Assembly (NCBI GenBank): GCA_027365055.1
Contig: DAHXOD010000001.1
Location: forward strand, 1,172-65,171
Length of the DNA stretch: 64,000 nucleotides
DNA from: a bacterium
Lineage (GTDB): Bacteria; Actinomycetota; Acidimicrobiia; Acidimicrobiales; RAAP-2
Direction of reading: 5' to 3'
The position numbers and the translations under genes are program-made. Positions 1 to 49,512 of this stretch are shown here, one piece after another (position 1 is the first letter of the stretch; every line of letters starts with the position of its first letter). The notes below the pieces were generated by a model. The model did not search any database, was not told where the DNA came from, and saw only the letters and a list, made by a program, of their open reading frames with translations.

Positions 1-120
1 ACGGCAGGGGCCGGCCTATCCGGTCTGCTCGTCGCCTCGCTCTCCGACCGCGGTGGTCGCGGGGTCGAGCATCGGGTCCAGGAGCGGCGCTCGGCGCCGG
101 GAACCGGGACCATACGTTCG

Positions 121-819
121 TTGCTTCTCCCGTGTCTGGCCGGCGTCTTGGCCGGCTTGGTCACCGGTTGGCTTGCTGTCGTCCCGATTGCCGCAGCGGC
201 GGTGTGGGGTCTTCCCCGGCTGTTCACCGGGACGTCCGGGTCGGTCTCGCTGGCGAAGATCGAAGCCATCGCTGCGTGGACCGAGCTGCTTCATGGGACG
301 TTGGCCGCGTCGGCCGGTCTCTCCCAGGCGATCATCGCCACCGCCCCGCTCGCCCCGACGCCGATCCGGGGATCGATCGTGAACCTTGCTGCTCGCCTGA
401 GCGCAGGGATGGACCCGACCGAAGCACTCGGACTGCTCGGCGACGACCTTGCTGATCCGTGTGCCGATCGGGTGATCTGTGCACTCCTGCTGGCCATGTC
501 GTCGCGGGCACAACGACTGGGTGACCTGCTCGCGGCACTGGCGGAGTCGACGCGAGACGAAGTAGGGCTCCGGCTGCGGATCGAAACCAGCCGTGCCTCG
601 GTCCGCAGTGGAGTGCGCACGGTGATCGCGTTCTCGGTGGTGTTCGCCGCCCTCCTGGCCCTGCTGGCTCGTTCCTACCTGGCTCCCTTCGGATCGGTGA
701 CCGGGCAGCTGGTGCTGCTGGTGGTCGGCCTGCTCTATGCGCTCGGGCTCGCCTTGATGGTGACCATGTCCCGACCGCCGGAGGCGGTCAGGCTGCTCGG
801 GAGCGGGGAGCTCCGATGA
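121..819 (+). CDS. tadB: Tad/Flp pilus assembly membrane protein, TadB-like (T2SS-F/GspF family)
   Basis: Track ORF of 232 aa with an N-terminal TM helix, a soluble helical core and C-terminal TM helices, as in TadB/GspF-family proteins. Its stop overlaps the next gene (ATGA 816-819). The first in-window start is TTG 121, but frame 1 has no stop back to nt 1, so the true 5' end may lie upstream of the window. Confidence 0.7.
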   Translation: MLLPCLAGVLAGLVTGWLAVVPIAAAAVWGLPRLFTGTSGSVSLAKIEAIAAWTELLHGTLAASAGLSQAIIATAPLAPTPIRGSIVNLAARLSAGMDPTEALGLLGDDLADPCADRVICALLLAMSSRAQRLGDLLAALAESTRDEVGLRLRIETSRASVRSGVRTVIAFSVVFAALLALLARSYLAPFGSVTGQLVLLVVGLLYALGLALMVTMSRPPEAVRLLGSGELR

Positions 820-1727
820 CGACGACGGCGATCGTCCTCGGGCTCCTGGTCGGCCTCGGTTGTGCCGGCGTCCTGTACGCCTTGGTTCCGGTCGCTCCGT
901 CACTCGAGGCGATGGTGCGCGTCGAGGCGCGCAAGGGTCCCCCAGGTGACCAGCCGGTCCTTCCCGGCCGGGTCGGCCGGGTCGGCCGGGTCCAGCAGTC
1001 GGGCATCACGTGGGCGAGGGATGCAGGCGTGCTCGACCACCCTTCGTGGTCGAGCCTGTCGACGACGTTTGCGCTCACCGGTTCGTCGCCTGACGTCGTG
1101 GTCGCCCGAGTGCTGGGCTGGGCGGGGAGCGGCCTGGTCCTGCCCCCGGCGCTCTGGGCACTGGCATCGCTCGCAGGTGTCGCCCTCCCTCTGGTCGTCC
1201 CGGTCGCGCTTGCGGCGGTGCTCGTCCTGGTCGGGACGGTCGTTCCCTTCGCCCAGCTCTTCGACGATGCCAAGGTTCGCCGGCGGCATGTGCGCATCGT
1301 GGTCGGAAGCTATGTGGATCTGGTCGTGCTGTGCCTCGCGGGGGGCGCCGGTATCGAGAGCGCGTTGCTTGCAGCAGCAGACGTGAGCACCGACTGGGCG
1401 TCGAGGCGTCTGTTGCGCTCACTCCTCCTGGCGCGAGACTCGGGGCAGCCGGCGTGGTCGGTCCTCGGCGACCTTGGTCGACAGTGGGACGTGCAGGAAC
1501 TCTGCGAGCTCGCCTCCACGCTGCAGTTGGCCGGAACCGAAGGGGCACGTGTCCGCCAAGCACTCTCCGCCCGAGCGGTCTCGCTGCGCCGGCACGAGCA
1601 GGCGGACGCAGAGAGCGCCGCCAATGCCACCACCGAACGGCTCTTCCTCCCGGGGGCACTCCTCCTCGTGGGATTCCTCCTCTTCATCGGGTATCCGGCC
1701 TTCAGCCGGATCCTGGGTGGTTTCTGA
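816..1727 (+). CDS. tadC: Tad/Flp pilus assembly membrane protein, TadC-like (second T2SS-F paralogue)
   Basis: 303-aa ORF with TM helices flanking a helical soluble region, placed directly after tadB with an ATGA start/stop overlap. This paired TadB/TadC arrangement is typical of tad loci. It contains an in-frame 9-bp x3 repeat (966-992, GRVGRVGRV). Confidence 0.7.
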   Translation: MTTTAIVLGLLVGLGCAGVLYALVPVAPSLEAMVRVEARKGPPGDQPVLPGRVGRVGRVQQSGITWARDAGVLDHPSWSSLSTTFALTGSSPDVVVARVLGWAGSGLVLPPALWALASLAGVALPLVVPVALAAVLVLVGTVVPFAQLFDDAKVRRRHVRIVVGSYVDLVVLCLAGGAGIESALLAAADVSTDWASRRLLRSLLLARDSGQPAWSVLGDLGRQWDVQELCELASTLQLAGTEGARVRQALSARAVSLRRHEQADAESAANATTERLFLPGALLLVGFLLFIGYPAFSRILGGF

Positions 1728-1835
1728 TGGCGGCCATCGTGAGCCGGGAGGAGTTGGCCCGGCGCCGCGGTTGGGCGCGGCACCAAGGCGACACACCAAC
1801 ATCCAGCATCACAACAGAGAAAGGACCACTGCGTC

Positions 1836-2027
1836 ATGTTCACGGAAATTGCGGCACTCTGGGCTTACCTGCGGGCACGCGTCGACCTTGCCGGCGGATG
1901 GAACGAGCGGGGCACCGTCGTCGAGAAGGTGATCCTCACCGCGATCTTCGCGGCCTTGGCCATCGCGGTCGGAGCGATCATCGTGGCGAAGGTCACGACC
2001 AAGGCCAATTCCATCAACCTGAATTGA
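1836..2027 (+). CDS. Small Flp/DUF4244-like putative prepilin
   Basis: 63-aa ORF with a GAAAGGA Shine-Dalgarno about 9 nt upstream. A charged leader ending in ..NERG is followed by a ~22-residue hydrophobic helix (TVVEKVILTAIFAALAIAVGAIIVA). It sits between tadC and the TadE-like genes, as in actinobacterial tad loci. Confidence 0.6.
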   Translation: MFTEIAALWAYLRARVDLAGGWNERGTVVEKVILTAIFAALAIAVGAIIVAKVTTKANSINLN

Positions 2028-2452
2028 GCGGACCGAGCCACCCGGTCTCCCGCAGCCGGCGCCCGCTGCGTAGCCCGTCCCTCCGCAGCGATCGCGGATC
2101 GACGGTGGAGGCGGTCCTCGTCATGCCGGTGGTGATGCTGCTCCTCCTGGCCGTGGTGCAGTTCGCGCTGTGGGCGCATGCCGCACAAGTCACCCAGCTG
2201 GCCGCGTCGACCGGCGACCGATCGGCACGAGCCCTGGGTGGTGGTGCCGCACTGGGGAGTGCCGATGCACAGGGCGTGCTGCAGAGCTCCCGCGGGAGCA
2301 TCACCGGGACCGCGGTGTCGATCGCGGTGCTGCCCGGCGGCATCGTCGAGACCCGGGTGACCGGCTCGGCGGTGTCGATCGTCCCCTGGCTCTCCTTCCC
2401 GGTCTCCGCCACGGTGGCGGGACCGCTCCAGACCTTCCGGCCCCATGAGTGA
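2024..2452 (+). CDS. TadE-like pilus assembly protein (minor pilin)
   Basis: This is the last 143 codons of track ORF 1331..2452. TTG 2024 overlaps the stop of the pilin gene (TTGA); GTG 2105 is an alternative start. STVEAVLVMPVVMLLLLAVVQFALWAHA matches the TadE N-terminal hydrophobic motif. Confidence 0.65.
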   Translation: MSGPSHPVSRSRRPLRSPSLRSDRGSTVEAVLVMPVVMLLLLAVVQFALWAHAAQVTQLAASTGDRSARALGGGAALGSADAQGVLQSSRGSITGTAVSIAVLPGGIVETRVTGSAVSIVPWLSFPVSATVAGPLQTFRPHE

Positions 2453-2894
2453 TCTGACGGGCACCGCGGCTGGCCGGGCGATCGGCGAGCACGACGATGC
2501 GGGAAGCCTGGTCGTAGAGCTGGTGGTGCTGACACCGGTGCTCTTCCTGTTGGTCCTCGTCGCGGTCGTCTTCGGCCGGGTCACCGGCGCGCGCCAGCTG
2601 ATCACCGAGTCGGCCCGGGCCGGTGCCCAGGCGGCCGCGGTGATGCCGAACGCGTCGAGTGCGATCGCCGCGGCCGGACAGAGCGCGGCGGTGGGGACCA
2701 CGGGGCGGCACGATCCGTGCATTCGAACAGTGGTGTCCACTGACGTCAGCCAGTTCCGACCGGGTGGCTCGGTGACGGTCACGGTGGTCTGCACGGTCGA
2801 CCTGGCGGATCTGGCGGTGCCGGGGCTCCCCGGTACCGCCACCATCCGCTCGTCGACAACCGCGCCGGTCGATCCGTACCGGTCGGTGCAATGA
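2445..2894 (+). CDS. TadE/TadF-like pilus assembly protein
   Basis: 149-aa ORF. The N-terminal GSLVVELVVLTPVLFLLVLVAVVFGRV is a TadE-type motif. ATG 2445 overlaps the previous stop (2450-2452). Confidence 0.65.
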   Translation: MSDLTGTAAGRAIGEHDDAGSLVVELVVLTPVLFLLVLVAVVFGRVTGARQLITESARAGAQAAAVMPNASSAIAAAGQSAAVGTTGRHDPCIRTVVSTDVSQFRPGGSVTVTVVCTVDLADLAVPGLPGTATIRSSTTAPVDPYRSVQ

Positions 2895-2907
2895 CTGGCG
2901 GTCCCGG

Positions 2908-3426
2908 GTGGACCCGGACGGCGACGAGGATGAGGGAACGACGATGAGTGGCTGGCGCTTCACCGAGGGGAACCGATTCCGCCGGCAGCCGAAGCAAGGG
3001 CACGAGGGGCTCGAGCGACGGTGTCGGGAAGACGGCTCGATCACTGCCTTCGTTGCCCTCGTGCTGGTCGCCCTCTTCGCGTTGCTCGGACTGGTGGTCG
3101 ACGGGGGTCGGGCGATCAGTTCCCAGCAAGCAGCCGTGGTGGAGGCCGAACAGGCCGCACGGGCCGGAGCCGGTGCGTTGTCGGTCGGCGGACTGCGCCA
3201 CGGCACCGTCACGCTGGTGAGCAGGCGAGCGATCGCCGATGCCGTGGCGTACACGGTGGCTGCGGGCCATCCGGGGACGGCCACCATGGCCAACGGTGTG
3301 GTGACGGTCCACGTGCGATACCGGATGCCGACCGTGATCTTGGGGATCGTGGGCATCTCCTCTCTCCCGGTGTCGGCGACGGCGACAGCGGTCGACCTGG
3401 CCGGCGTGACACAGGGGGCGCCATGA
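2908..3426 (+). CDS. TadG-like pilus assembly protein (Tad N-terminal motif)
   Basis: 172-aa ORF. EDGSITAFVALVLVALFALLGLVVDGGRA resembles the 'putative Flp pilus-assembly TadE/G-like' N-terminal motif. Start is GTG 2908, with ATG 2944 as an alternative. Confidence 0.6.
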   Translation: MDPDGDEDEGTTMSGWRFTEGNRFRRQPKQGHEGLERRCREDGSITAFVALVLVALFALLGLVVDGGRAISSQQAAVVEAEQAARAGAGALSVGGLRHGTVTLVSRRAIADAVAYTVAAGHPGTATMANGVVTVHVRYRMPTVILGIVGISSLPVSATATAVDLAGVTQGAP

Positions 3427-6425
3427 CTGACCGCACTCCTACAGGGCGGAGTGGACCGAGCGGGATACCGCGGTCGCTGGTGTCGCTGGTTGCCTTGGTT
3501 GCCCTGGTCGTGGCCGTGCCGGTGGTGCTGGTGGCGGCCGGCGGTAATCCGCTCCCGCGGGGACGCTGGCACCAGTTGCACGTGCTGTTCTCGGCCCATC
3601 AGGGATTCGACGCCCACCTCGCTTCCCGCTGGATGGTCGATGGAGCACTGGTGGTGGGCTGGTTGACCTGGGCGTGGCTGGTCGTGTGCGTGGTGATCGA
3701 GGTGGTGTCGTGGGCAACCGGAAAGACGCCGGCTCGGCTCCCCGGGAGCCGCACCATGCAGTCGGTGGCGGCCTGCCTGGTCGGGACCTCACTCGCGTTG
3801 GTGGCGATCAACCGGGTGCTGCCGGCACCGACCGCTCGGCACGCCGCCACCAGGGAGCAGGTCGGCACGCTGCACGTCATCGAGGAGTTCAGACCGGTCG
3901 ATGCTGCCTCCCCGGCGCAGGGATCTGCAGCGATCGGTACCCTCGCCAACCAGGTACCGGTTGAAGGAGTGGGCCCCGGGGGGGAGGAGACTCCCCATGT
4001 CGTGACGGAGCAACCCCGATCCATGGTCGAGGAACGGGAGGTGGTCGCCGATGCGATCGCCCTGCACACGGTCTCGGCCCGGGAGACGCTGTGGTCGATT
4101 GCCGAAGCCCGGCTCGGCACGGCCCGCCGTTGGAAGGAGATCGCCGACCTGAACTACAGATCTCGACAGGCCGATGGCGGAATGCTGACGGACACGCACT
4201 GGATCCAACCCGGTTGGACGTTGCGGCTGCCCGTCGATGCGACCCCTGGCCCGACCACCGTATCCGGCCTGAGGGGGGATCCGGTTCCGCTCGATGGCCG
4301 CGTGACCACGTCCGCGGCATTGCCTTCCTCCACACCGGCGCCGGTGGCCACCTCGGCAGCCGTTCCGTCGGAGATGGCGGACGTGTCGCCTGTCACGCGG
4401 GTCCAGTGGGAACCGGTCTCGTCGCAGGGTGCCCGCTCGGTTTCCGGGGAACCGGCCTCGTCACACGGTGCCCGATCGGTCGCCGGAACTCCGATCGAGC
4501 TGGTCGGTGCGGGCCTGCTCGGTGCCGGCCTGGTTGTGATCGTCGATCGAATGCGCCGTGCCCAACAGCGCCATCGACGCCGCGGGACCCTCATCCGACT
4601 GCCGGATCCGGCAGGGTCGGCGATCGAGGCCAGGATTCGCGCCGGGTCCGGCCGATCGACCTCGCAAGCGATCGATCGCGCCCTCCAACTCTTCGTGTCG
4701 AGCGTTCCCGGTCGTGACCGGCGGGCACCGGGGTTGCTCGGTATTCAGGCGCATCCCGAGGCGATCGAGCTGCTGCTCGCTCGGCCGGCGGATGTCGGGC
4801 CGATTCCACCACCGTTCGCACTCCGTGGTGACCACCCCTCGCTCTTCCTCGACCGCTCGACGCTGGACGAGCACCTCCGGAGCGAACCGGGCGTTCCCGA
4901 CGGTGAGCGCCGGTGCCCGTTCCCGGCGGTGGTGACCGTGGGCAACGGTCGGGACGGACCCACGCTGGTCAATCTCGAACTGCTCGGATCGTTGGCGCTG
5001 CGGGGGGACGAGCAGGCCTGCGACGGCCTGGTACGCGCCCTCGCGCTTGAGTTGGCGACGTCACCATGGGCCGGACAGTTCGATCTGGTCCTTATCGGAT
5101 TCGGCCACGAGCTCGAACGGTTCGAGCGCGTCGAAGTGGTGGACGACCCCGCCCAACAGTTGCACCGGTTGCACGAGCGTCGCTTTTGTGCCGATCGACT
5201 CCTGGGAGCCGCTGGGTATCGTTCGTTCGGCGACGCCCGCTTCTTCGAAGAATCGGACGCCTGGGATCCCTTGATCGTCGTGTGCGGGCCCCGCGTCCCC
5301 CGCGAGGAGCGGTCGGAGCTCGTCGCCATTGGATCGGATCCGCGGGCAGGCGTAGCAGTCGTGGTCGCCGGCCCCGATGCCACGGCACGCCAGGTGATGG
5401 ACCTCCCCGCCGGGGGACGCAGCACCTCGTTGGACTGGCTCGGTGCTCTGGTGTTCCCGCAGCAGGTCACCGTGCAGGAACTGCGGGAGGTGACCTCCCT
5501 GGTCGCGGTGGCCGAAGACCGGGAGCCGGTCTCCCCACTCGATCCCCCTTACGACCAGCTCCCCATTCCGATGCCCCGGCTCAGTGAACGCGCCCTCCAC
5601 CCTGCGGTCGATCCCGACGCAGAGGCTGCACCCGGTGGGATCCGGAGCACTTCCCGAGAAGCCCGACCGGTCGCAGCCGACGGGGACCACACCGCCTCGG
5701 TCGAGGTGGCTGTGCTCGGCCCGGTCGAGATTCGTGGGGCCGCCCGTCCCTTCACCCGGGCATGGGCTCGGGAGCTGGTCGTCTACCTGGCGATGCACCC
5801 GAACGGGGCATCGAACGACAGCTGGGCCACGGCACTCTGGCCCGAGCGCGTGATGGCCGCGTCGAGCCTCCACTCCACCGCTTCGGTCGCCCGGCGGGCA
5901 CTCGGGCACGCGGGGGACGGCCATGACCACCTGCCGCGGTCCCATGGCCGCCTGCAGCTGGCCACCTCCGTCGGCACGGACTGGAGCCGCTTCGTGGAAC
6001 TGGCCTCGACCGACGATCCGGCCCAGTGGCGCCTGGCCTTGGAACTGGTGCGGGGGCGCCCGTTCGACGGCCTGCGTGCCTGCGACTGGCCCATCCTCGA
6101 GGGCATCGCCCCCGCCATCGAGGCGGCGGTTGTCGACCTCGCCGGCCGCCTGGCCGGCGCACGCCTGAGCCAGGGAGATCCATCCGGAGCGGAGTGGGCT
6201 GCCCGCAAGGGTCTTCTGGTCAGCCCCTACGACGAAAGGCTCTACCGGATGTTGCTGCGCTCTGCCGACGCGGCTGGTCATCCGGCCGGAGTCGAATCGG
6301 TCATGGCCGAGCTGATCCGTCTGGTCGCGGACGACGTCGAACCGTACGACTCGGTCCACCCGGCGACGATGGAGCTCTACCGCTCGCTGTCGCGCCGGAG
6401 CAGCCTCGTCGGTCTCAGCTCTTGA
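3423..6425 (+). CDS. Multi-pass membrane protein with LysM domain and C-terminal SARP-type winged-helix + BTAD domain
   Basis: In-frame ATG 3423 overlaps the tadG-like stop (ATGA). The first 134 codons of the track ORF from 3021 overlap the tadG-like gene and are Arg/Gly-rich junk. The protein has TM helices at the N-terminus, then a LysM-like segment (HTVSARETLWSIAEARLGTARRWKEIADLNY..WIQPGWTLRLP) and another TM helix (LVGAGLLGAGLVVIV). The C-terminus is VEVAVLGPVEIRG..RELVVYLAMHP plus helical repeats typical of AfsR/SARP BTAD regulators. Confidence 0.75.
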   Translation: MTDRTPTGRSGPSGIPRSLVSLVALVALVVAVPVVLVAAGGNPLPRGRWHQLHVLFSAHQGFDAHLASRWMVDGALVVGWLTWAWLVVCVVIEVVSWATGKTPARLPGSRTMQSVAACLVGTSLALVAINRVLPAPTARHAATREQVGTLHVIEEFRPVDAASPAQGSAAIGTLANQVPVEGVGPGGEETPHVVTEQPRSMVEEREVVADAIALHTVSARETLWSIAEARLGTARRWKEIADLNYRSRQADGGMLTDTHWIQPGWTLRLPVDATPGPTTVSGLRGDPVPLDGRVTTSAALPSSTPAPVATSAAVPSEMADVSPVTRVQWEPVSSQGARSVSGEPASSHGARSVAGTPIELVGAGLLGAGLVVIVDRMRRAQQRHRRRGTLIRLPDPAGSAIEARIRAGSGRSTSQAIDRALQLFVSSVPGRDRRAPGLLGIQAHPEAIELLLARPADVGPIPPPFALRGDHPSLFLDRSTLDEHLRSEPGVPDGERRCPFPAVVTVGNGRDGPTLVNLELLGSLALRGDEQACDGLVRALALELATSPWAGQFDLVLIGFGHELERFERVEVVDDPAQQLHRLHERRFCADRLLGAAGYRSFGDARFFEESDAWDPLIVVCGPRVPREERSELVAIGSDPRAGVAVVVAGPDATARQVMDLPAGGRSTSLDWLGALVFPQQVTVQELREVTSLVAVAEDREPVSPLDPPYDQLPIPMPRLSERALHPAVDPDAEAAPGGIRSTSREARPVAADGDHTASVEVAVLGPVEIRGAARPFTRAWARELVVYLAMHPNGASNDSWATALWPERVMAASSLHSTASVARRALGHAGDGHDHLPRSHGRLQLATSVGTDWSRFVELASTDDPAQWRLALELVRGRPFDGLRACDWPILEGIAPAIEAAVVDLAGRLAGARLSQGDPSGAEWAARKGLLVSPYDERLYRMLLRSADAAGHPAGVESVMAELIRLVADDVEPYDSVHPATMELYRSLSRRSSLVGLSS
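4408..4485. repeat. 39-bp tandem repeat x2 (imperfect, 6 mismatches) inside the LysM-BTAD gene
   Basis: Units 4408-4446 and 4447-4485 aligned by eye. They encode the Ser-rich linker ..EPVSSQGARSVSG / EPASSHGARSVAG. Confidence 0.8.
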
Positions 6426-8008: not shown

Positions 8009-9814
8009 GTGCACACAATTGTCCGGGATGATCGGGTCATGCAGCTGAGAGCGACCGTCCACGTCAGAAGCGTGACCGGGGAGGCGTCCATCCCGCGGCC
8101 GGCCCGGAGCGTCCGGCCGCACCGGAGGCGGACCCGGCCACCGCGGTGCTCTGCTCCGGTCCTCGGTGCCCTTTCCCTGACGTTGGTGCTGGTGACGGCG
8201 GTGCTGGTGACGGCAGTGCTCGGATCGGCAACCGTCGCCCTCGGCCCACAGCCTGCCGGCGCGTCCTCGGTGTCTCCGAGCGTGCCGGCGGCGACCGGAC
8301 CTTGGTACACGGTCGCCATGGGAGGCTCCACGGCCAAGGGAACCGGTTCCAGCTCCGTGGCACATCGCTACGTGAACCTGGTGGCCGATGCCGAGTCCGC
8401 CCGTTTCCCCGGGCTCTCGGTCGTGGACGTGGCCTGTGGCGGTGACACCGTCTCCGAGATCATCCACGGTGACCCTTGCCGGCCGACGGGTCAGACCCAG
8501 CTTGGAGACGCCGAGGCCTTCCTGGCCGCCCACGCGGGCCACGTCGCCTATGTCACGCTCGAGACCGGGGGGGACGACGTCCTACCCTGCGTGAGCTCGG
8601 CAGGGATCAACAGCGCCTGCCTGGCAGCGGCGTTGTCCGATATCCGCCAGGGCCTTCCGGTGATCGTCCATGGCATCGAGCATGCCGATCCCGGCGTCCC
8701 CATCGTGGCCGTGGGTTCCCATAATCCAGCGCTGTCGCACTGGATTCAAGGACCGTCGGGCCAGGCGACCGCCCGTCGGGACGCCGCCCTGTTCCCCACC
8801 TTCACCTCGACCCTGGTCAGCACCTACAGCGCGCTCGGGGTCCCGATCGCGGACATCCCGGGCGTCTTCGCCACCCAGGCGTTCTCGCCGACCGGGATCT
8901 GGAACGGGCAGGTGTTGCCGGTCAACATCGTCCGCGTCTGCAACTGGACCCACGACTGTGAGGCCGGCGCCGTCGGTCAGAACGTCCATCCCAACGACAC
9001 CGGGCATGCCATCTACGCGGCAACGGTCGAGTCGACCCTGGCCAGGATCTTCCGGGGTGGCGGTTCCGGGAGCTGGCTGGCGGCCGCGGACGGTGGGGTC
9101 TTCGCCCTCGGGGGTGCACCGTTCCTCGGTTCGATGGGCGGCACCCACCTGAACGCGCCGATCGTGGGGATGGCGGCGACGCCGGACGGCGGTGGCTACT
9201 GGCTGGTGGCGGCCGACGGGGGCGTCTTCTCCTTCGGCGACGCCCGGTTCCTCGGTTCGATGGGCGGCACCCACCTGAACGCGTCGATCGTGGGGATGGC
9301 GGCGACGCCGGACGGCGGTGGCTACTGGCTGGTGGCGGCCGACGGGGGCGTCTTCTCCTTCGGCGACGCCTACTACGCCGGTTCGCTCGGCGGCACGCAC
9401 CTCAACCGTCCCGTCGTCACCCTGGTGCCGTCCAACAGTGGCTTCGGCTACTGGCTGGTGGCGGCCGACGGGGGCGTCTTCTCCTTCGGCGACGCCGCCT
9501 TCGCCGGCTCGATGGGCGGCACCGCGTTGAACGCCCCGATCGTCGGTGCGGCTGCCACCTCGGACGGCGGTGGCTACTGGCTGGTGGCGGCCGACGGGGG
9601 CGTCTTCTCCTTCGGCGACGCCGCCTTCGCCGGCTCTGCCGGCGGACTGACGCTGCACGCTCCGATCGACGCCATGCTCCCGAGCCTCAGTGGAGGGGGC
9701 TATCAGCTGGTCGGGTCCGACGGCGGGGTGTTCGCGTACGGAGACGCGCCGTTCGCCGGGTCCCTCGGTGGCCTGCACCTCGATGCACCGGTGGTAGCGG
9801 CGGCCCAGTACTGA
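8009..9814 (+). CDS. Secreted SGNH/GDSL-like hydrolase fused to six tandem ~42-aa repeats (GYWLVAADGGVFSFGDA..GS.GG..LN.PIVG)
   Basis: 601-aa ORF with an N-terminal basic and hydrophobic signal-like segment. The SGNH-like blocks are AMGGSTAKG, ETGGDD and VHPNDTGH. The C-terminal half consists of six repeats. The start is uncertain (ATG 8009 or ATG 8039). Confidence 0.75.
   Translation: MHTIVRDDRVMQLRATVHVRSVTGEASIPRPARSVRPHRRRTRPPRCSAPVLGALSLTLVLVTAVLVTAVLGSATVALGPQPAGASSVSPSVPAATGPWYTVAMGGSTAKGTGSSSVAHRYVNLVADAESARFPGLSVVDVACGGDTVSEIIHGDPCRPTGQTQLGDAEAFLAAHAGHVAYVTLETGGDDVLPCVSSAGINSACLAAALSDIRQGLPVIVHGIEHADPGVPIVAVGSHNPALSHWIQGPSGQATARRDAALFPTFTSTLVSTYSALGVPIADIPGVFATQAFSPTGIWNGQVLPVNIVRVCNWTHDCEAGAVGQNVHPNDTGHAIYAATVESTLARIFRGGGSGSWLAAADGGVFALGGAPFLGSMGGTHLNAPIVGMAATPDGGGYWLVAADGGVFSFGDARFLGSMGGTHLNASIVGMAATPDGGGYWLVAADGGVFSFGDAYYAGSLGGTHLNRPVVTLVPSNSGFGYWLVAADGGVFSFGDAAFAGSMGGTALNAPIVGAAATSDGGGYWLVAADGGVFSFGDAAFAGSAGGLTLHAPIDAMLPSLSGGGYQLVGSDGGVFAYGDAPFAGSLGGLHLDAPVVAAAQY
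8186..8220. repeat. 15-bp tandem repeat x2.3 in the signal-peptide region (VLVTA VLVTA VL)
   Basis: gtgctggtgacggcg / gtgctggtgacggca / gtgct read directly from the sequence. Confidence 0.8.
9121..9372. repeat. 126-bp tandem duplication (123/126 identical) within the repeat-protein gene
   Basis: Units 9121-9246 and 9247-9372 compared base by base. There are 3 differences. A 51-bp core (ggctactggctggtggcggccgacgggggcgtcttctccttcggcgacgcc) recurs four times across the gene. Confidence 0.9.
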
Positions 9815-35775: not shown

Positions 35776-35789
35776 AGGGTGAGCGCCCG

Positions 35790-38700
35790 GTGTTCCTGAA
35801 GTCGCTCTCCCTCAAAGGGTTCAAATCGTTTGCCGATCCAGCCGTGCTCGAATTCGAGCCCGGCATCACGGTGGTGGTCGGTCCCAACGGCAGCGGCAAG
35901 TCCAACGTGGTCGACGCGGTGGCCTGGGTCCTGGGAGCGCAAGGCCCGCGGACGGTGCGTTCGGCCAAGATGGAAGACGTCATCTTCGTGGGAACGGCCA
36001 ACCGGCCGGCGCTCGGTCGGGCGGAGGTGGCCCTCACGATCGACAACAGCTCGGGCCGGCTCCCTTCGGACCTGGCCGAGATCACCATCACCCGTACGTT
36101 GTTCCGTTCCGGCGACAGCGAGTACGCGATCAACGGCGCCCCCTGCCGGTTGCTCGACGTCCAGGAGTTGCTTTCGGACACCGGTGTCGGGCGTCAGCAA
36201 CACGTGATCATCAGTCAGGGCCAGCTGGACGCGATCTTGAACGCCCGTCCGGAAGACCGCCGTTCGGTCATCGAGGAAGCCGCAGGCGTCCTCAAGTACC
36301 GCAGGCGCCGTGAGCGGTCCGAGCGCCGGCTGGCGGCGACGGACGAGAACCTCGAACGGCTTTACGACCTGGTCCGCGAGGTCAAACGGCAGATCCGACC
36401 GCTCGAGCGCCAGGCGGCAGCGGCGCGCAACCATCTCGAGCTGGCCGGCGAGCTCCGTGCGGTACGGCTCTTTCTCGCCGGAAACGAACTGGCCTCCCTC
36501 GACGGTCGTACTCGCGACGGCAAGGCGCTCGAGCGCGAGTTGCGCACCAGCGAGGAGCGCCTGAGGGCGTCAGTGGCGACGCTCGACACCGACACCAGCC
36601 GTACGTCGGACGAGTTGTCCGCGCAACGCGAAGCCGATCTCGCGTCGTCGCTGGGTCGGGTCGAAGGACTGGTCGAGCGGGCTCGCGGCCTGACCGGCGT
36701 GCTCCGGGAGCGCCAACGGTCCCTGGCGCAGGCCCTGGACGCCGCAGCCGACGCCGACGTGGTCTCGACCCTCGAAGCGGAGGGCGCGCGCCTGGCAGCG
36801 GAGATCGAGTTGGCCGAGGGTGAGGCTGGCACACTGGCCGTGCAAGAAGCTCAGGTGATCGAAGCGGTCGCCGCCCCGGCGGCCGAATTGGTGGCTCACC
36901 TGGAGACCTGGGGGGACGGCGCCGAAGTGCGGCGGGCTGACGAAGCGGTCACCGTGGCTCGGGCACAGCTCGAGGCGCTCGATCGCGGTCTCGAACGTGA
37001 TCGTCGCACCCTCGACCAGGTCACCACCCGTCAGGTAGTGGCTCAGCGCCGGGTCAGTACCACCGAAGGCGAGGAGCACGAGCTCACCGAACGCCTGGCC
37101 GAGACCGAGCAGGCCCGCAATCTGTTGCAGGCCGCGGTCGCCGAGTCGGAAGCCGCGCTCGCCGATGCACTCCAGCGGTTGGAGGTGGCCGAGGAGACGC
37201 TCCGCAAGGCCGAACAGGAGCATCACCGGTCGGCCGCACGCGCCGATGCGTTGGCCCGGGCGCTCGACGAGGCGCGTGGCGCGGCCGGGGCGGAGTTGCT
37301 CGCCGGGGTGGACGGCGTGGTCGGGATCCTCCTCGATCTGGTGGAAGTGGACGCAGGGTGGGAGCAGGCGTTCGACGCGGCCGCCGGGGCTTCGTTGTCG
37401 GCGGTGGTCGTCTCCGGCAATCAACCGGCGCGAGCGGCACTGGCCCGGCTCCGTCAGGGCGAGGCTCCTGGTGCGGTGTTGGCTCTCTCGTCAGCCGGGA
37501 GCCTCCGTCCCTCGGCAGCCGGAGGCGGTCTGTCGAGCATCACTGGCTTGGTTCCGGGGGTGGAACCCGTGCGCACGCATGTCCGGGAGCGACGCGATCG
37601 ACCGGGTGTCGCCGGATTGGAACACGTGCTCGACACCCTGCTGGCCGGGGCCTTCTGCGCCGAGGAGTGGTCCTCGGCAATCGACCTGGCCCTGGAGCGA
37701 CCCGATCTGGTGGTGGTCACCCGCGAGGGGGACCGTTTCTCGTCCACCGGTTGGCGCGTCCGGGCGGCTGGAGGAGTGGTGACTGCCGCGGTGGTCGACG
37801 AGGCGCAGGCGCGGGCGGAGACGGCGACGGTGGAAGCCGAGCGAGCCGCCACCGAGCGCGGAGTGGCCCGGGCTGCGGTGGAGGCGGCCCGGGCGGCCGC
37901 CGCGGAGGCTGTGCGCGCCGACGAACGCAACGAGACCGCCCACCACGCAGCAAGCGTGGCCCGCCAGCGGATCGCCGGCGAACTGTCCGCCCTGGCGGCG
38001 GAGCTCGACGACGCGATCCGCTCCTCCCGTGAGATCGAGGAGCGGATCGAGCGGGACGCGCGCCGGCGCGCCGAGCTTGAGCTCGGTCTTCCCGCGCTCG
38101 AATCGGCCCGGGAGCGTGCCGGGCGGGCGGCTGTGGAGGCGCGTGCAGAACGCGCCCGGATCGACGCCCGTACCGCTGAGGCTGCGGTGCTCCGCAGTGA
38201 ATGGGAAGCTCGGGTGGCCGGGGTCGAGGAGCGTCGCCGCGTGCTGGTCGATAGATTGAGCGAGGTGGAGCGCCGGCTCACCGGGCATGCCGAGGAACGT
38301 CTCGAGGCGGCTGAACGACGGCGTCGCCTCGAGGCGGACGCCACTGCAGCCAGCCGTCTCGTCGAGTTGGTGGCCGAGGTCAGTCACACGTTGTCCGGCG
38401 CTCGCAGTGAGCTCCGTGAGCGTCACCGGCTCCAGCTCGAAGCCGTGCGGGCCGGGGGGGCGCGGCTCGAAACGCTCCGGCGCCAGCGAGCGGCGGCCGA
38501 GCACGAGCTGGCCGCGGTGCGGAGCCGCCTCCAGAAGGTGGAGCTCGATCTGGCCGAGGTGACCATCCGTCGTCAAACCGTGGTGGACCTGCTGATGCGC
38601 GAGCTCGGGAGCGACGAGACGGAAGCGGCGGCCGCGCCGCAGCCCGACCTGGATGGGATGGACGCCGATGCCCGGGTGGCCCACCTCGAGTCCCAGATTC

Positions 38701-39470
38701 GGACGTTGGGTCCGGTCAACCCGCTGGCCGTCGAGGAGCTCACCGAACTGGGTGAGCGTCATCAGTTCCTCCAAGCCCAGGTCGACGACGTCCGTGTCGC
38801 CCGGCGCGAGCTCCAACAGGTGATCCATACCCTTGACGGGGAGATCATGCAGGTGTTCGACGCGGCGTTCGCCGATGTCAACGAACACTTCTCCTCGCTG
38901 GTGACCTCGTTGTTCCCCGGGGGAACCGGCCGACTGTCACTGACCGATCCCGGAAACCTGCTGGAGACCGGGGTCGAGGTCGAGGTACGGCCAGCGGGCC
39001 GCAATGTCCGGCGGCTGTCCCTGCTCTCCGGGGGCGAGCGTTCCCTGGTGGCTCTGGCGTTCCTCTTCGCCGTCTTTCGCAGCCGGCCGTCGCCCTTCTA
39101 CTTGATGGACGAGGTCGAGGCTGCCCTCGACGACGTCAACCTCCACCGGTTCCTCGGCTTGGTCCACGAGTTCCGCGAGGAGGCACAGCTGATCATCGTG
39201 AGCCACCAGAAGCGCACCATGGAGGCCGGCGACGCCCTCTACGGGGTGACCATGGCCCCCGGCGGCTCGTCCAAGGTGGTCAGCCAGAAGGTGCCCCGCC
39301 GCCAGGGCGAACCAGACGTGTCACCGCTCGACCCCTCGGAGAGCGAGCCGGCACCGCACGCGAGCGCGGCGCTGCCGGACGAGAGGAGCGGCGCCGGCGG
39401 TGCGCTGAACGTCGGTCCATCGAGCGCCGGTGATGCACACTCGGGTCGACCGCCGGGAGGGTTGCCGTGA
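35790..39470 (+). CDS. smc: Chromosome segregation protein SMC
   Basis: N-terminal FKSFADP..VVGPNGSGKSNVVDA, long coiled coils, a hinge, and C-terminal LSGGERSLVALAFLFA..MDEVEAALD. There is a Ser/Pro/Gly tail of about 45 aa. Confidence 0.95.
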   Translation: MFLKSLSLKGFKSFADPAVLEFEPGITVVVGPNGSGKSNVVDAVAWVLGAQGPRTVRSAKMEDVIFVGTANRPALGRAEVALTIDNSSGRLPSDLAEITITRTLFRSGDSEYAINGAPCRLLDVQELLSDTGVGRQQHVIISQGQLDAILNARPEDRRSVIEEAAGVLKYRRRRERSERRLAATDENLERLYDLVREVKRQIRPLERQAAAARNHLELAGELRAVRLFLAGNELASLDGRTRDGKALERELRTSEERLRASVATLDTDTSRTSDELSAQREADLASSLGRVEGLVERARGLTGVLRERQRSLAQALDAAADADVVSTLEAEGARLAAEIELAEGEAGTLAVQEAQVIEAVAAPAAELVAHLETWGDGAEVRRADEAVTVARAQLEALDRGLERDRRTLDQVTTRQVVAQRRVSTTEGEEHELTERLAETEQARNLLQAAVAESEAALADALQRLEVAEETLRKAEQEHHRSAARADALARALDEARGAAGAELLAGVDGVVGILLDLVEVDAGWEQAFDAAAGASLSAVVVSGNQPARAALARLRQGEAPGAVLALSSAGSLRPSAAGGGLSSITGLVPGVEPVRTHVRERRDRPGVAGLEHVLDTLLAGAFCAEEWSSAIDLALERPDLVVVTREGDRFSSTGWRVRAAGGVVTAAVVDEAQARAETATVEAERAATERGVARAAVEAARAAAAEAVRADERNETAHHAASVARQRIAGELSALAAELDDAIRSSREIEERIERDARRRAELELGLPALESARERAGRAAVEARAERARIDARTAEAAVLRSEWEARVAGVEERRRVLVDRLSEVERRLTGHAEERLEAAERRRRLEADATAASRLVELVAEVSHTLSGARSELRERHRLQLEAVRAGGARLETLRRQRAAAEHELAAVRSRLQKVELDLAEVTIRRQTVVDLLMRELGSDETEAAAAPQPDLDGMDADARVAHLESQIRTLGPVNPLAVEELTELGERHQFLQAQVDDVRVARRELQQVIHTLDGEIMQVFDAAFADVNEHFSSLVTSLFPGGTGRLSLTDPGNLLETGVEVEVRPAGRNVRRLSLLSGGERSLVALAFLFAVFRSRPSPFYLMDEVEAALDDVNLHRFLGLVHEFREEAQLIIVSHQKRTMEAGDALYGVTMAPGGSSKVVSQKVPRRQGEPDVSPLDPSESEPAPHASAALPDERSGAGGALNVGPSSAGDAHSGRPPGGLP

Positions 39471-45058: not shown

Positions 45059-45352
45059 GTGAGCGAAGAAGATCTCGAACGGTACGAGTCCGAGATCGAG
45101 CTGGCGCTGGTACACGAGTACCGGGCCGTGCTCCCGATGTTCTCCTACGTGGTGGAGACGGAGCGTCGCTTCTACCTGGCCAACAAGGTCGAGGTGTCCG
45201 TGCGCTCGGGCGAGAACCTCCCCTGTGTGGAGGTGTGCCTCGAGGATGCCTGGGTCTGGGACATGTACCGCCCGGCGCGTTTCGTACCGTCGGTCAGGGT
45301 GCTGACGTTCCGGGATGTGAACATCGAGCGGCTTCCTGAACCGGAGCTGTGA
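45059..45352 (+). CDS. DUF2469 domain protein
   Basis: SEEDLERYESEIELALVHEYRAVLPMFSYVVETERRFYLAN..DAWVWDMYRPARFV is the actinobacterial DUF2469 signature. GTG 45059 is used as the start. Confidence 0.85.
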   Translation: MSEEDLERYESEIELALVHEYRAVLPMFSYVVETERRFYLANKVEVSVRSGENLPCVEVCLEDAWVWDMYRPARFVPSVRVLTFRDVNIERLPEPEL

Positions 45353-45714
45353 GCGACCGGATGGACCCTCGCCGGGCACTGGGTGCCGCTGGTGAGTCGC
45401 TGGCGGCGGCGTGGTACGAGGAACACGGTTTCGAAGTCCTGGAGCGTAACTGGCGGCGTCGGGAGGGAGAGATCGACCTCATCGTGCGCCGCGGTCGCCT
45501 GGTGGTCTTCTGCGAGGTCAAGACCCGCCGGGGGAGTCGGTACGGAACGGGGGCGGAAGCGGTGGTGGTGCCCAAGCAGCGCCGGATCCGCCGGCTGGCC
45601 ACTCGTTGGCTCTCCGAGCTCACACCGGCGGTGGGTCGGGACCGGGTGGAGGTCCGTTTCGACGTGGCCGAGGTGACGGGCCACTCCGTCTCGGTGATCG
45701 AGGATGCGTTCTGA
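45349..45714 (+). CDS. YraN family (UPF0102) endonuclease-like protein
   Basis: GE.LAA.W....G..VL.RNWR...GEIDLI......VVFCEVKTR pattern. The start overlaps the upstream stop. Confidence 0.88.
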   Translation: MSDRMDPRRALGAAGESLAAAWYEEHGFEVLERNWRRREGEIDLIVRRGRLVVFCEVKTRRGSRYGTGAEAVVVPKQRRIRRLATRWLSELTPAVGRDRVEVRFDVAEVTGHSVSVIEDAF

Positions 45715-46589: not shown

Positions 46590-46744
46590 CGCCTCGATCC
46601 TTGCGGTGACGAGGGGTCGGGGCGCCGGTGTCACAGCGGACGGGTACGGTGACCGGACAGCTCGAGTGGTCGGTCCTGGTGGGTGCGGCGACTCCGTCAT
46701 CGGTTCCCGGTCCCTGACACGCGCCCCGCTGGTCGGGTGGCCGG

Positions 46745-48316
46745 ATGGCAACGATCGGAGGCGTCATGATCGCCACCATCCCCTCGGCCGTCCTGATCGG
46801 CGTGGACGGGAAGCAGGTCTCCGTCGAGGTTCACGTCTCCAATGGCCTTCCCGGGTTCACCGTGGTCGGGCTCCCGGACGCAGCGGTCCGCGAGTCGAGG
46901 GATCGCGTCCGGGCCGCACTGCTGTCGAGTGGTCTGCCGTGGCCACTCCGCCGGGTCACGGTGAACCTGGCTCCCTCGGGGGTGCGCAAGGGAGGAGCCG
47001 GTCTCGACCTGCCCATCGCGATGGGACTCTTGGTCGCCGCCGGGGAGCTGGCCCCCGAGACGATCGAGGGCATGGCGTTTGTCGGAGAGCTCGGCCTCGA
47101 CGGCTCGCTCCGGGGCGTTCCGGGGACGCTTGTATTGGCGGATGCCCTCCGACCCCGCCTGCTGGTGGTCCCCGACGCCAGTGCGGATGAGGCGGCATTG
47201 TCGCACCGCGATGCGATCCGGAGTGCCCCCGACCTTGCCGGCCTGGTCGAGTGTGTCCTCGGGCGTCGCCAGTGGAACGCCCCCGCTGCGTCGAGTCCCC
47301 GGCGCGGGCGTGGTCCGAGCCGGAACGGGGACCAGCTCGCATCGAGGTCGGGGGACCTGGCGGATGTCCGGGGCCAACGATTCGCCCGGCGGGCTCTCGA
47401 GGTCGCCGCCGCGGGTGGGCATCACCTCCTGATGGTGGGGCCGCCGGGTTCGGGGAAGACGATGCTGGCCAACCGGCTGCCCGACCTCCTCCCACCGCTC
47501 GACCGTTCGACGGCGTTGGAGGTGTGCCGGATCCATTCGGTGGCCGGGCTGGCGCTCCCTCCGTGCGGCCTGATCACCCGACCTCCGTTCCGTGCGCCGC
47601 ATCATGGCGCTTCTCCCGTCTCGATGATCGGTGGAGGCAGCGCGTGGATGCGTCCGGGTGAGATCAGCCTGGCCCACGGCGGCGTGCTCTTTCTCGACGA
47701 GATGGGGGAGTTCCCGGCGAGCGTGCTCGAGGCGCTCCGCCAACCGCTCGAGGAGGGTCAGGTGCGGGTGAGCCGGGCCCGGGGCTCGGCCTCGTTCCCG
47801 GCCCGCTTCATCCTGGTGGGAGCGATGAACCCTTGTCCCTGTGGAGAGGGAGGGAGCCCTGGCCGTTGCCGCTGTTCCGATGCGGCCCGTCACCGGTACG
47901 CCCGCCGGCTGTCCGCCCCGTTGCTCGACCGGTTCGACATTGCCATCCGGCTCGAACGCCCCCAGGTCGACGAGCTCATCGGCGGATCCGGGGGCGAGTC
48001 GACTGCCCGGGTGGCCGGTCGGGTGGCGGCAGCCCGTTCGATTGCCCGGCACCGGGCGGTGCGAGCGAACGCGGATCTGGCGGGGCACTCTCTGTCCCGA
48101 TCGGTACCGATGGCTGACGACGCCCTCGCCCTGATCGAGACCGAGCTGCGGGCGGGTTCGCTCAGTGCCCGTGGGATGCACCGGGTGCACCGGATCGCGC
48201 GCACGGTGGCGGATCTCGACGGAGGGGGAGCGGTGGTCGAGGTGCGCCATGTCCGCGAGGCGCTGCTCCTCCGTTGTCGACGTGAACTGCTCCTCGGCGG
48301 GGAGGAGGAGGCATGA
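46745..48316 (+). CDS. comM: YifB/ComM family Mg-chelatase-like AAA+ ATPase
   Basis: VEVHVSNGLPGFTVVGLPD.AVRESR.RV, Walker A GPPGSGKTMLA, LFLDEMGEF, and a Cys cluster NPCPCG. ATG 46766 is an alternative start. Confidence 0.92.
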   Translation: MATIGGVMIATIPSAVLIGVDGKQVSVEVHVSNGLPGFTVVGLPDAAVRESRDRVRAALLSSGLPWPLRRVTVNLAPSGVRKGGAGLDLPIAMGLLVAAGELAPETIEGMAFVGELGLDGSLRGVPGTLVLADALRPRLLVVPDASADEAALSHRDAIRSAPDLAGLVECVLGRRQWNAPAASSPRRGRGPSRNGDQLASRSGDLADVRGQRFARRALEVAAAGGHHLLMVGPPGSGKTMLANRLPDLLPPLDRSTALEVCRIHSVAGLALPPCGLITRPPFRAPHHGASPVSMIGGGSAWMRPGEISLAHGGVLFLDEMGEFPASVLEALRQPLEEGQVRVSRARGSASFPARFILVGAMNPCPCGEGGSPGRCRCSDAARHRYARRLSAPLLDRFDIAIRLERPQVDELIGGSGGESTARVAGRVAAARSIARHRAVRANADLAGHSLSRSVPMADDALALIETELRAGSLSARGMHRVHRIARTVADLDGGGAVVEVRHVREALLLRCRRELLLGGEEEA

Positions 48317-49512
48317 TGGCTGAGGTGTCCGACGTATCCTTCGCGGCAGCCATCACGGGACTGGCGGGGATGACGCCGGTGCGGCTGGCGGCGGTGATGG
48401 CCGGGCGGACGCCCGCTGAAGCGTGGCGGCTGCTGGACGCGGGATGCCACCCTCAGGATCCTGGTGGCCGGTTCGTTCGTGCCGTCCGGAGGACTGATCC
48501 GGCCGGCGAAGGCGAGCGCTACCTGCAGGCGGGGATCCAGGTGCTGCTGCCGACGTCCCCCTCCTATCCGACCTCGCTCGTCCACGATCCGGGTGCACCG
48601 GCGGTGCTGTTCGCCCGCGGCGCCACGGACTGTTTCGCCGACCGACGGAGGGTCGCCATCGTCGGTACCCGGAGCGCGACCCCGTACGGGCGTGCCGTGG
48701 CCTCCGAGCTCGGGGGCGAGCTTGCGTCCGCAGGGGTGACGGTGGTGTCCGGGTTGGCTCGGGGGATCGATGGGGCGGCCCACGCCGGAGCGGTCCGTCA
48801 CCCCTCGGCGCCGCTTGCGCCGCCAGTGGCGGGGGTCGGAACCGGTCTCGACGTGGTGTACCCGACCTCCAACCGGGCGCTCTGGGAGACGATCGCAACC
48901 ACCGGCGTGCTCTTCTCGGAGTCGCCGCTCGGCACTCCGCCACTTCCTCGGGTGTTCCCGGCCCGGAACCGGATCATCGCCGCACTGGCCGACGTGGTGG
49001 TCGTTGTTGAGAGTCACCACCAGGGAGGTTCACTGGCGACCGCCGAGGCCGCGGCCCGCCGGGGAATCCCGGTCTGCGCGGTTCCGGGTTCGGTGCGCAG
49101 CCGTGCCTCGGAAGGAACCAACGGGCTGCTGGTCGACGGGTGCATCCCGGTCCGGGACGCCGCCGATGTGCTGGTGGCGATCTCCCTGGCCCGCTCCCGG
49201 AAGGATGCCCCGTGGCCGTCGCAACAGACCGGGACGCTGGTCGCCGCCCGGGGACGCGACCGGACCCGAGGCGACACGTCCTCGACAGCCACCGGAGCGG
49301 ACGGTCGGCGTCGGGCCAAGGGCCCCGAGCGGGTTCCCGATGCGTCCACCGCCGAGCGGGTGGTCTGGGATGCGATCGACGACGTGCCCACCACGATCGA
49401 AACCATCCTGCTGCGGAGCGACCTTTCGATCGCCGTGGCGGCCGAGGCGTGCGAACATTTGGTGAGCGAGGGGTTCGTCCGCGCCGGGGCCGGCTGGTGG
49501 GCAAAGGTCTGA
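48313..49512 (+). CDS. dprA: DNA-processing protein DprA
   Basis: VAIVGTRSATPYG...A..L...L...GVTVVSGLARGID.AAH and ARNRIIAAL. ATGA overlap with comM. Confidence 0.92.
   Translation: MMAEVSDVSFAAAITGLAGMTPVRLAAVMAGRTPAEAWRLLDAGCHPQDPGGRFVRAVRRTDPAGEGERYLQAGIQVLLPTSPSYPTSLVHDPGAPAVLFARGATDCFADRRRVAIVGTRSATPYGRAVASELGGELASAGVTVVSGLARGIDGAAHAGAVRHPSAPLAPPVAGVGTGLDVVYPTSNRALWETIATTGVLFSESPLGTPPLPRVFPARNRIIAALADVVVVVESHHQGGSLATAEAAARRGIPVCAVPGSVRSRASEGTNGLLVDGCIPVRDAADVLVAISLARSRKDAPWPSQQTGTLVAARGRDRTRGDTSSTATGADGRRRAKGPERVPDASTAERVVWDAIDDVPTTIETILLRSDLSIAVAAEACEHLVSEGFVRAGAGWWAKV

Follow-up and report, generated by a model that had tools for sequence, protein, structure and literature searches.

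What is a protein with the marks of both a cell-wall binder and a transcription factor doing at the end of a pilus operon? The question is raised by a 64,000-nucleotide stretch of DNA (the window throughout; contig DAHXOD010000001.1 of assembly GCA_027365055.1) from a bacterium of the Acidimicrobiales, high in GC (~70%), whose nearest relatives are throughout metagenome-assembled genomes (MAGs) of Acidimicrobiales/Acidimicrobiaceae. The genes of a Tad/Flp pilus lie at its left end, and the last of them encodes BIG, a membrane protein of 1000 amino acids (aa) with a LysM domain, an FtsK-like domain and a SARP-type C-terminus. In Gram-positive bacteria, how Tad machines cross the wall, attach to it and are regulated is poorly understood.

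We favor the reading that BIG is a membrane-tethered, one-component, autoregulatory activator of the SARP family dedicated to the tad operon, and give it about an even chance of being right. That the pilus machine might be connected to a membrane-bound activator had already been suggested in a preliminary description of this DNA; the idea stays a favored possibility, now with a triple repeat of SARP-type geometry at the operon promoter of relatives behind it.

BIG as the Last Gene of the tad Operon

Seven genes on the plus strand and four start/stop overlaps had been listed for the left end of the window, and all of them were exact when read again in the sequence: ATGA 816-819, TTGA 2024-2027, ATG 2445 against TGA 2450-2452, and ATGA 3423-3426 (Table 1). 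BIG was compared with its relatives in a set of 80 genome loci from Acidimicrobiales MAGs, the gene order being judged where the upstream DNA was sufficient. The order tadB-tadC-flp-tadE-tadE-tadG-BIG was found in all informative relatives with the sole exception of locus L008, about 75 of 76 related loci from Acidimicrobiales had BIG after tadG, and in 62 of 79 the BIG start codon overlapped the tadG stop, at position -4 or -1. The overlap of tadG and BIG is thus non-accidental, and its conservation across loci is good evidence that the two genes are co-transcribed and translationally coupled, in line with the earlier placing of BIG as last cistron of the operon. The full operon of the relatives encodes a lipoprotein-like protein, a secreted Gly-rich protein, SAF/CpaB, TadZ-like, TadA, TadB, TadC, Flp, TadE, TadE, TadG, and BIG; the upstream genes for TadA (CpaF), TadZ, and CpaB/SAF keep the same order in L001, L002, and nearly all other loci. 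In the present genome this upstream half (TadA, TadZ, SAF, promoter) lies off the left edge of the window.

The family is large. A word-index search returned 163 relatives, and an exhaustive profile search 3,542 cluster representatives at E<=1e-30. By tblastn, homologues some 25-33% identical to BIG of the window were present on 221 plasmid records (145 from Streptomyces, 29 from Rhodococcus, the others including Curtobacterium, Micrococcus, and Cutibacterium). Six plasmid loci were inspected (Glutamicibacter pGnB68, R. fascians pFiD188, M. luteus pSGAir0127, S. clavuligerus pSCL3, Kineococcus pKRAD01, and one Curtobacterium plasmid); in all six BIG comes directly after tadG or one to three small genes later, and in four of them a prepilin peptidase gene is directly 3' of it. 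On the Promicromonospora chromosome and on one contig of the Joint Genome Institute the gene is placed likewise, with overlaps of 1-4 nt. The adjacency, which might have been peculiar to this genome, is therefore the rule in every actinobacterial tad locus examined.

The pairing, put forward in the preliminary description as the best candidate for an undescribed module, is not new in itself. In Table 2 of the 2013 report on the C. acnes plasmid pIMPLE-HL096PA1, PAGK_2369 is listed after three TadE genes with the Pfam content "LysM, BTAD", mislabeled "TadB", without discussion and without a proposed or tested function (PMC3666418). PAGK_2369 shares with BIG both the place after the TadE/TadG genes and the LysM plus BTAD content. 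Beyond that table, we found no account in the literature linking a LysM-SARP/BTAD protein to tad/Flp pili. Databases name the genes of the family generically, for example "LysM peptidoglycan-binding domain-containing protein" by PGAP for those of plasmid tad loci. An 850-aa metagenome protein matching Pfam Tad (P0112) was considered as a TadG-BIG fusion and rejected; with a garbled linker and no SARP end, it is probably a frameshift or assembly artefact.

Domain Organization of BIG

The product of the gene is identical to a protein database entry (P0001), and an NCBIfam scan of this single sequence gave no family match. Its anatomy was read from a family profile and alignment of 51 homologues and from an AlphaFold2 model built on that alignment, with a mean predicted local distance difference test score (pLDDT) of 77 and mostly above 90 within domains. 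The model shows three transmembrane helices, a disordered linker, the LysM domain, a second linker, a fourth transmembrane helix, a middle domain of about 300 aa, and the SARP-type domain, in that order (Table 1). In the membrane part W80, W83, W85, C89, E93, G100, P107, R110, and Q113 are invariant or nearly so, and four arginines at or after the fourth helix (R376, R378, R383, and R385) are invariant. From the positive-inside rule and the model we infer that the N-terminus is inside, LysM outside, and everything past residue 383 cytoplasmic.

The LysM domain had been proposed before as an extracytoplasmic element. Searched against PDB, the family profile matched LysM proteins at E 2.3e-6 to 1e-3, the best being TsaP of the Myxococcus type IV pilus machine (3jc8, 2.3e-6), and the model shows the beta-alpha-alpha-beta fold (strands 213-216 and 266-269, helices 223-231 and 234-244, pLDDT 82-93). 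Both signature and fold are thus present through the family profile and the model, although the window copy on its own, with 16.0 bits against Pfam LysM, stays under the cut-off of 20.9.

The FtsK/EccC-like pseudo-ATPase domain, which separates the SARP part from the membrane part, had been overlooked. Modeled separately, it reached a pLDDT of 89.7, and a Foldseek search against PDB gave the E. coli FtsK motor (2ius, E 6.7e-9), followed by TcpA, EssC, and EccC. The probability was 1.00 for all these matches, at TM-scores of 0.38-0.47, and a search with the whole of BIG agreed. The fold is that of a RecA-like P-loop protein, but the Walker motifs of FtsK/HerA (A, GxxGxGK[ST]; B, hhhhDE) are absent. 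In 51 of 51 aligned homologues G[DE]xxxC[ED]G stands in place of Walker A and VVxCGP in place of Walker B. Because both motifs are replaced throughout, the domain is not classed as an ATPase; judged by these residues, it is a pseudo-enzyme incapable of ATP hydrolysis.

The assignment of the C-terminal part as SARP-type is carried by family profiles and fold searches. Its secondary structure over residues 760-996 agrees with the SARP fold, a winged helix followed directly by BTAD. Foldseek against PDB retrieved AfsR (8hvr/8k60) and EmbR (2fez/2ff4) at E 4e-6 to 3e-5 over about 256 residues, with target TM-scores of 0.46-0.67 overall (0.64-0.67 for AfsR) and 21-23% identity; the match to the AfsR SARP chain 8hvr_I had E 4.5e-6, TM-score 0.67, and 21% identity. 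In 40 relatives this is the most conserved region of the protein (74% mean column identity), a presumptive recognition-helix stretch, SSLHSTASVARR, being nearly invariant, and 33 of the 40 match BTAD at E<=0.1, the best at 4e-8. A winged helix with BTAD at the C-terminus, as first described, is therefore upheld by fold and by the relatives, whereas the single copy in the window misses the Pfam cut-offs. A check with Pfam models, proposed at the time, was borderline in its outcome. With the gathering scores as cut-offs (T2SSF 25.2, TadE 22.9, Tad 22.3, LysM 20.9, and BTAD 22.1 bits), the operon components passed (two T2SSF, two TadE, one Tad), LysM and BTAD were sub-threshold, and Trans_reg_C gave no match.

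A Triple Repeat Ahead of the Operon in Relatives

A site was sought upstream because a DNA-reading C-terminal domain should have a conserved one. The intergenic spacer between tadC and flp held no conserved regulator site, only lineage-specific short tandem repeats. Ahead of the first operon gene of the relatives, three direct GCAAGGT heptamers are repeated with a period of 12 bp. The exact pattern of three CAAGG was found at 19 sites in 18 loci, on the operon strand only (about 0.04 expected by chance). With up to five mismatches allowed over 21 positions, there were 99 matches on the plus strand versus 11 on the minus strand, covering nearly every locus with enough upstream DNA. The consensus of 54 non-identical sites is GCAAGGT-N5-GCAAGG-N6-GCAAGGT-N8-cAc.cT. 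The third GCAAGGT is 8 bp from a conserved -10-like hexamer, nAnnnT, and [A/G]TG follows six bases further. Read as a leaderless start of the first gene, this [A/G]TG would fit only 25 of 53 sites.

At SARP promoters, direct repeats are one or two helical turns (11 or 22 bp) apart and the 3' repeat is 8 bp from the -10 element, which in afsS is CACTGT (PMC10936776). The boxes of the relatives match the 8-bp spacing to a weak -10. The box also accompanies BIG where the pilus genes do not. In L008 (8822-16806) it is directly upstream of a TadZ-like gene followed by a BIG paralogue, and pilin and platform genes are absent. The next gene in L008 encodes 1201 aa, with a C-terminal stretch that by eye resembles a SARP-type winged helix. 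In a scan of metagenomes for the exact box pattern, the matches listed were mostly unrelated coding repeats with a 12-bp period; among them were two further tad operon starts and one stand-alone unit of box and ssb, and no new regulon member.

Some other repeats were seen in these loci. In L001 (16618-16648, minus strand) and also in L005, a box with one mismatch is 84 nt upstream of an opposite-strand IS30-type transposase gene (HTH_38/rve), about 4 kb downstream of the tad operon. The tadC-flp spacers of L013, L018, L052, L063, and L023 contain CAGTCA six times, CCGAACCAA in n copies, CCATCAG in n copies, and CACCAACGC three times, directly upstream of the pilin gene; such repeats might permit phase variation through slippage. 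On Glutamicibacter pGnB68 (L086, ~2560-2710) ATGCATT occurs three times at an 11-bp period, twice over, upstream of the ParA gene that heads the SAF-tad operon. These repeats are ambiguous between a partition site and a SARP-type box for the BIG homologue of the plasmid.

The ssb Paralogue and DNA Handling

In a subclade of 16 loci, BIG is followed on the same strand by a gene of the SSB family (Pfam SSB, 110 bits). About 12 of the 16 have a more degenerate box 91-94 nt upstream of it, with the identical 8-bp/nAnnnT geometry, and on a metagenome contig (L143, 2892-3424) box and ssb paralogue occur together, the preceding ~3 kb being free of tad genes and BIG. A box at both ssb and tad promoters, including that of L143, is the pattern expected from a trans-acting factor with a small regulon.

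A competence role for the pilus had been suggested from the presence of comM and dprA in the same window. Both genes were confirmed, as was yraN (UPF0102). They are about 40 kb away, in a tight same-strand run yraN-comM (Mg_chelatase-type)-dprA within a housekeeping block that also has smc, ftsY, and ffh, and a position weight matrix (PWM) scan of the 64-kb window found no GCAAGGT box near comM/dprA. At that distance, in such a block, and without the box, their co-location is an argument without weight. The box-associated ssb paralogue, absent from the window, is an independent and better pointer to DNA handling, as a hint. Competence-induced SsbB proteins are known in Firmicutes. The tad clusters for competence in M. 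luteus have been described as ending at tadG, and the paper mentions neither LysM nor SARP.

BIG could also be a DNA-handling relative of FtsK/SpoIIIE/TraB that anchors DNA at the pilus base or guides it there in uptake or plasmid transfer, its C-terminal winged helix reading repeats on the transported DNA. FtsK and Streptomyces TraB have the order membrane anchor, FtsK-like domain, C-terminal winged helix, which BIG parallels. Its fold matches include the FtsK motor and the conjugation coupling protein TcpA, homologues are common on actinobacterial plasmids, and the ssb paralogue shares the box. Against this, Walker A and B are destroyed in every aligned homologue, so BIG cannot be a motor and a part in DNA translocation is unlikely; the C-terminal domain is of the SARP type rather than FtsK gamma, and the repeats stand at a fixed promoter geometry before genes instead of being scattered. 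We consider this reading very improbable.

A Proposed Membrane-Held Activator and Its Alternatives

If BIG is the activator, its SARP domain would bind the GCAAGGT repeats and recruit RNA polymerase while the protein stays held in the membrane. Since BIG is the last cistron of the operon that it would activate, a positive feedback loop would result. The LysM ectodomain and the conserved transmembrane bundle may hold the protein at the wall or signal the condition of wall or pilus, and the dead FtsK-like domain may let it oligomerize or dock, TadZ or TadA being conceivable partners. The box would drive the ssb paralogue as well in one subclade, extending the regulon slightly beyond the operon. 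A structural role of BIG in the pilus machine at the same time is compatible with all this.

Several observations weigh against this activator reading. By sequence alone the SARP assignment is weak. Pfam BTAD scored 15.2-18.6 bits on BIG of the window and Trans_reg_C nothing, and neither the full-length nor the C-terminal profile, searched against PDB sequences, found a SARP, the top matches of the latter being designed helical repeats. Nearly all sites have a repeat period of 12 bp, where known SARP sites have 11 or 22 bp. The box is absent from the 64-kb window by PWM scan, where the top score was 5.6 (null maximum 3.9 +/- 3.0; true sites 30-48), the operon start being left of base 1; as the box lies outside the window, the link is made for this genome by homology only. 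A simple search upstream of the operons of R. fascians, M. luteus, S. clavuligerus, Kineococcus, and Promicromonospora revealed no comparable triple repeat. In some loci (for example L011, L023, L025, L075, and L081) an unexplained palindrome, AGTTGCAC-N6-GTGCAACT, then TCTTATGGTCCGC, then ATG, stands between box and first gene, some 70-110 nt past the former; it may act as an additional promoter or operator, or form a hairpin in the 5' untranslated region. In plasmid loci BIG stands between tadG and the prepilin peptidase gene, as a machine part would. Finally, we infer the pairing of BIG with the box, whose binder could be a regulator other than BIG.

That last point gives an alternative in its own right, namely that the box belongs to another regulator and that BIG is an unrelated signaling or wall protein sharing the operon. 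The 12-bp period would fit it, as would the palindrome, which suggests further regulators near the promoter. On the other hand, no second regulator gene is conserved beside the box, box and BIG are found together in virtually all loci as well as in the minimal unit of L008, and the geometry agrees with the SARP rule. We think this alternative quite unlikely.

The placement of BIG raises a stronger one, that the protein is purely structural, a subunit that anchors the Gram-positive Tad machine in the wall or aligns it. LysM would sit in peptidoglycan, the FtsK-like domain would form a ring on TadA/TadZ, and BTAD (TPR-like) and winged helix would serve as scaffold and bind no DNA. BIG is always inside or at the end of a structural operon, four plasmid loci have the order tadG-BIG-prepilin peptidase, and the best sequence match of its LysM domain is TsaP, the peptidoglycan-binding part of type IV pilus machines. 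Degenerate ATPase domains of the EccC type act as scaffolds in type VII secretion, and the TadZ-like gene is the only tad-type gene retained beside the L008 paralogue. But the winged helix with its recognition helix is the most conserved part of BIG, an intact DNA-reading head of the OmpR type would be superfluous for a mere scaffold, and a box of SARP geometry accompanies BIG at two kinds of promoter and in L008. A purely structural BIG is thus possible, though in our view doubtful.

The two roles could also be joined. BIG may be anchored in the wall as a component of the Gram-positive Tad machine and at the same time act as master switch of a small regulon for DNA uptake, holding its promoters at the membrane and responding to wall or pilus, a combination that we rate as rather unlikely. 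If true, the tad and ssb promoters would be kept under the pilus platform by way of the dead FtsK-like ring, and the widespread Tad systems of actinobacteria, those on plasmids included, would be pili for DNA uptake or transfer under a new class of membrane SARP.

Comparison with Known Proteins

The activator that we favor has a winged helix plus BTAD fold in common with the SARPs AfsR, EmbR, ActII-ORF4, and DnrI, at a sequence similarity below PDB and Pfam thresholds. Described SARPs, which are soluble, have an N-terminal SARP domain that NOD/TPR or FHA may follow, whereas that of BIG is C-terminal, behind four transmembrane helices, LysM, and a dead FtsK-like domain. Described SARP targets are antibiotic clusters and the candidate target of BIG is a pilus operon, with a box that resembles SARP sites in its 8-bp spacing to a weak -10 and differs from them in its period. 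BIG is closest in fold to the SARPs, and we would see in it an architecture new among them more than a typical member, as it falls short of the Pfam thresholds and shares neither the soluble N-terminal layout nor the 11-bp period.

ToxR, TcpP, and CadC work in principle as BIG would, being membrane-resident winged-helix activators with an extracytoplasmic domain, and TcpP governs a type IVb pilus regulon. The analogy is functional only. In these proteins a cytoplasmic N-terminal winged helix is followed by one transmembrane helix and a periplasmic sensor, while BIG has the reverse order, four transmembrane helices, and LysM, FtsK-like, and BTAD parts in addition; the only homology detected is in the generic winged helix. 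TcpP was a weak match to the BIG family profile (E 0.88).

TsaP and FimV/HubP, like BIG, have LysM outside the membrane and are tied to a type IV filament machine; FimV couples LysM and a transmembrane segment to a cytoplasmic part containing TPR. They belong to diderm type IVa systems and have no DNA-binding or FtsK-like domain, and their likeness to BIG is that of a LysM domain of ~50 residues. With FtsK/SpoIIIE/TraB and EccC/EssC, finally, BIG shares the P-loop fold in a domain that comes after a membrane anchor, and EccC has degenerate, non-catalytic copies. BIG differs in lacking Walker A and B family-wide, in a TM-score of only 0.38-0.47 to FtsK/EccC, in having a single copy, and in having no FtsK gamma domain.

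Generically named database entries of the family existed already, and one table had recorded its place in a tad locus. The full domain reading, the near-universal membership in the tad operons of sampled actinobacteria, and the predicted SARP-type box common to ssb are new here. Known SARPs are soluble proteins that activate antibiotic clusters, and a polytopic SARP that carries LysM and a dead FtsK-like domain and serves a pilus operon would widen both the roles of the family and its modes of control. The family occurs in tad loci of plasmids of medical or agricultural relevance, in acne-associated C. acnes, R. fascians (pFiD188), Curtobacterium, and Clavibacter. The predicted box (three GCAAGGT repeated every 12 bp, the last one 8 bp from the -10) is a directly testable handle, and its sharing with ssb offers a concrete route to ask whether Tad pili serve DNA uptake.

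Other Features of the Window

Table 1: Positions of the tad genes, of the parts of BIG, and of other genes discussed. Positions are those of the window unless a locus is named.
Feature	Position	Strand	Basis or remark
tadB-like platform protein (T2SSF), cut by left edge	1..819	+	Pfam T2SSF, 33.4 bits
tadC-like platform protein (T2SSF), ATGA overlap with tadB	816..1727	+	Pfam T2SSF, 35 bits
63-aa Flp-like prepilin candidate	1836..2027	+	Position, size, hydrophobic core, 56-89% identity in relatives
TadE-like minor pilin 1 (start codon uncertain)	2024..2452	+	Pfam TadE, 42.3 bits
TadE-like minor pilin 2, overlaps preceding gene by 8 nt	2445..2894	+	Pfam TadE, 34.3 bits
TadG-like protein	2908..3426	+	Pfam Tad (PF13400), 28.8 bits
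BIG, 1000-aa LysM/FtsK-like/SARP membrane protein, ATGA overlap with tadG	3423..6425	+	Last cistron
BIG residues 14-132, three predicted transmembrane helices (14-40, 64-99, 110-132)	3462..3818	+	DSSP, pLDDT; strongly conserved
BIG residues 213-270, LysM, predicted extracytoplasmic	4059..4232	+	Family profile, fold
BIG residues 365-383, fourth transmembrane helix, then positive patch RMRRAQQRHRRRG	4515..4571	+	Model, sequence
BIG residues 396-700, FtsK/TcpA/EssC/EccC-like P-loop fold, degenerate Walker A/B	4608..5522	+	Model, Foldseek
BIG residues 760-996, SARP-type domain (OmpR-like winged helix plus BTAD)	5700..6410	+	Foldseek, secondary structure
smc	35778-39467		Housekeeping block
yraN (UPF0102)	45340-45711	+	Confirmed in window
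comM	46718-48313	+	Confirmed in window
dprA	48286-49509	+	Confirmed in window
ssb paralogue	L057 12917-13441	Same as BIG	Also in L045, L051, L055, L056, L058, L060, L061, L065
ssb paralogue, further loci	L067-L070, L073, L076, L080	Same as BIG	

The start of tadB had been placed at TTG 121. No stop codon interrupts the frame between base 1 and this codon, and alignments with many homologues extend upstream of it into residues 3-40 (window 1-120), so the window begins within tadB. TTG 2024 is a possible start of the first TadE gene. The 63-aa gene had no match in Pfam and NCBIfam scans, Flp models included, and is a candidate Flp only by its position, size, hydrophobic core, and 56-89% identity to the gene at the same position in relatives. 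Its hydrophobic core follows ...ERG/TVVEK, with E at +4 and no Y (the Flp processing motif being G/XXXXEY), and a Shine-Dalgarno-like stretch, AGAGAAAGGA, lies upstream of the gene. Scans of 1-8 kb showed no terminator-like or promoter-like (sigma-70-like) sites between the genes of the cluster and no Rfam match.

Downstream, the neighbor of BIG in the window is a convergent gene for a luciferase-like oxidoreductase, and no gene for the prepilin peptidase TadV adjoins. Further on, positions 8009-9814 of the plus strand encode a predicted secreted protein of 601 aa, whose N-terminal region resembles an SGNH/GDSL hydrolase and is followed by about six tandem repeats of 45 residues of the type GGGYWLVAADGGVFSFGDAxFxGSxGGxxLNxPIVG.

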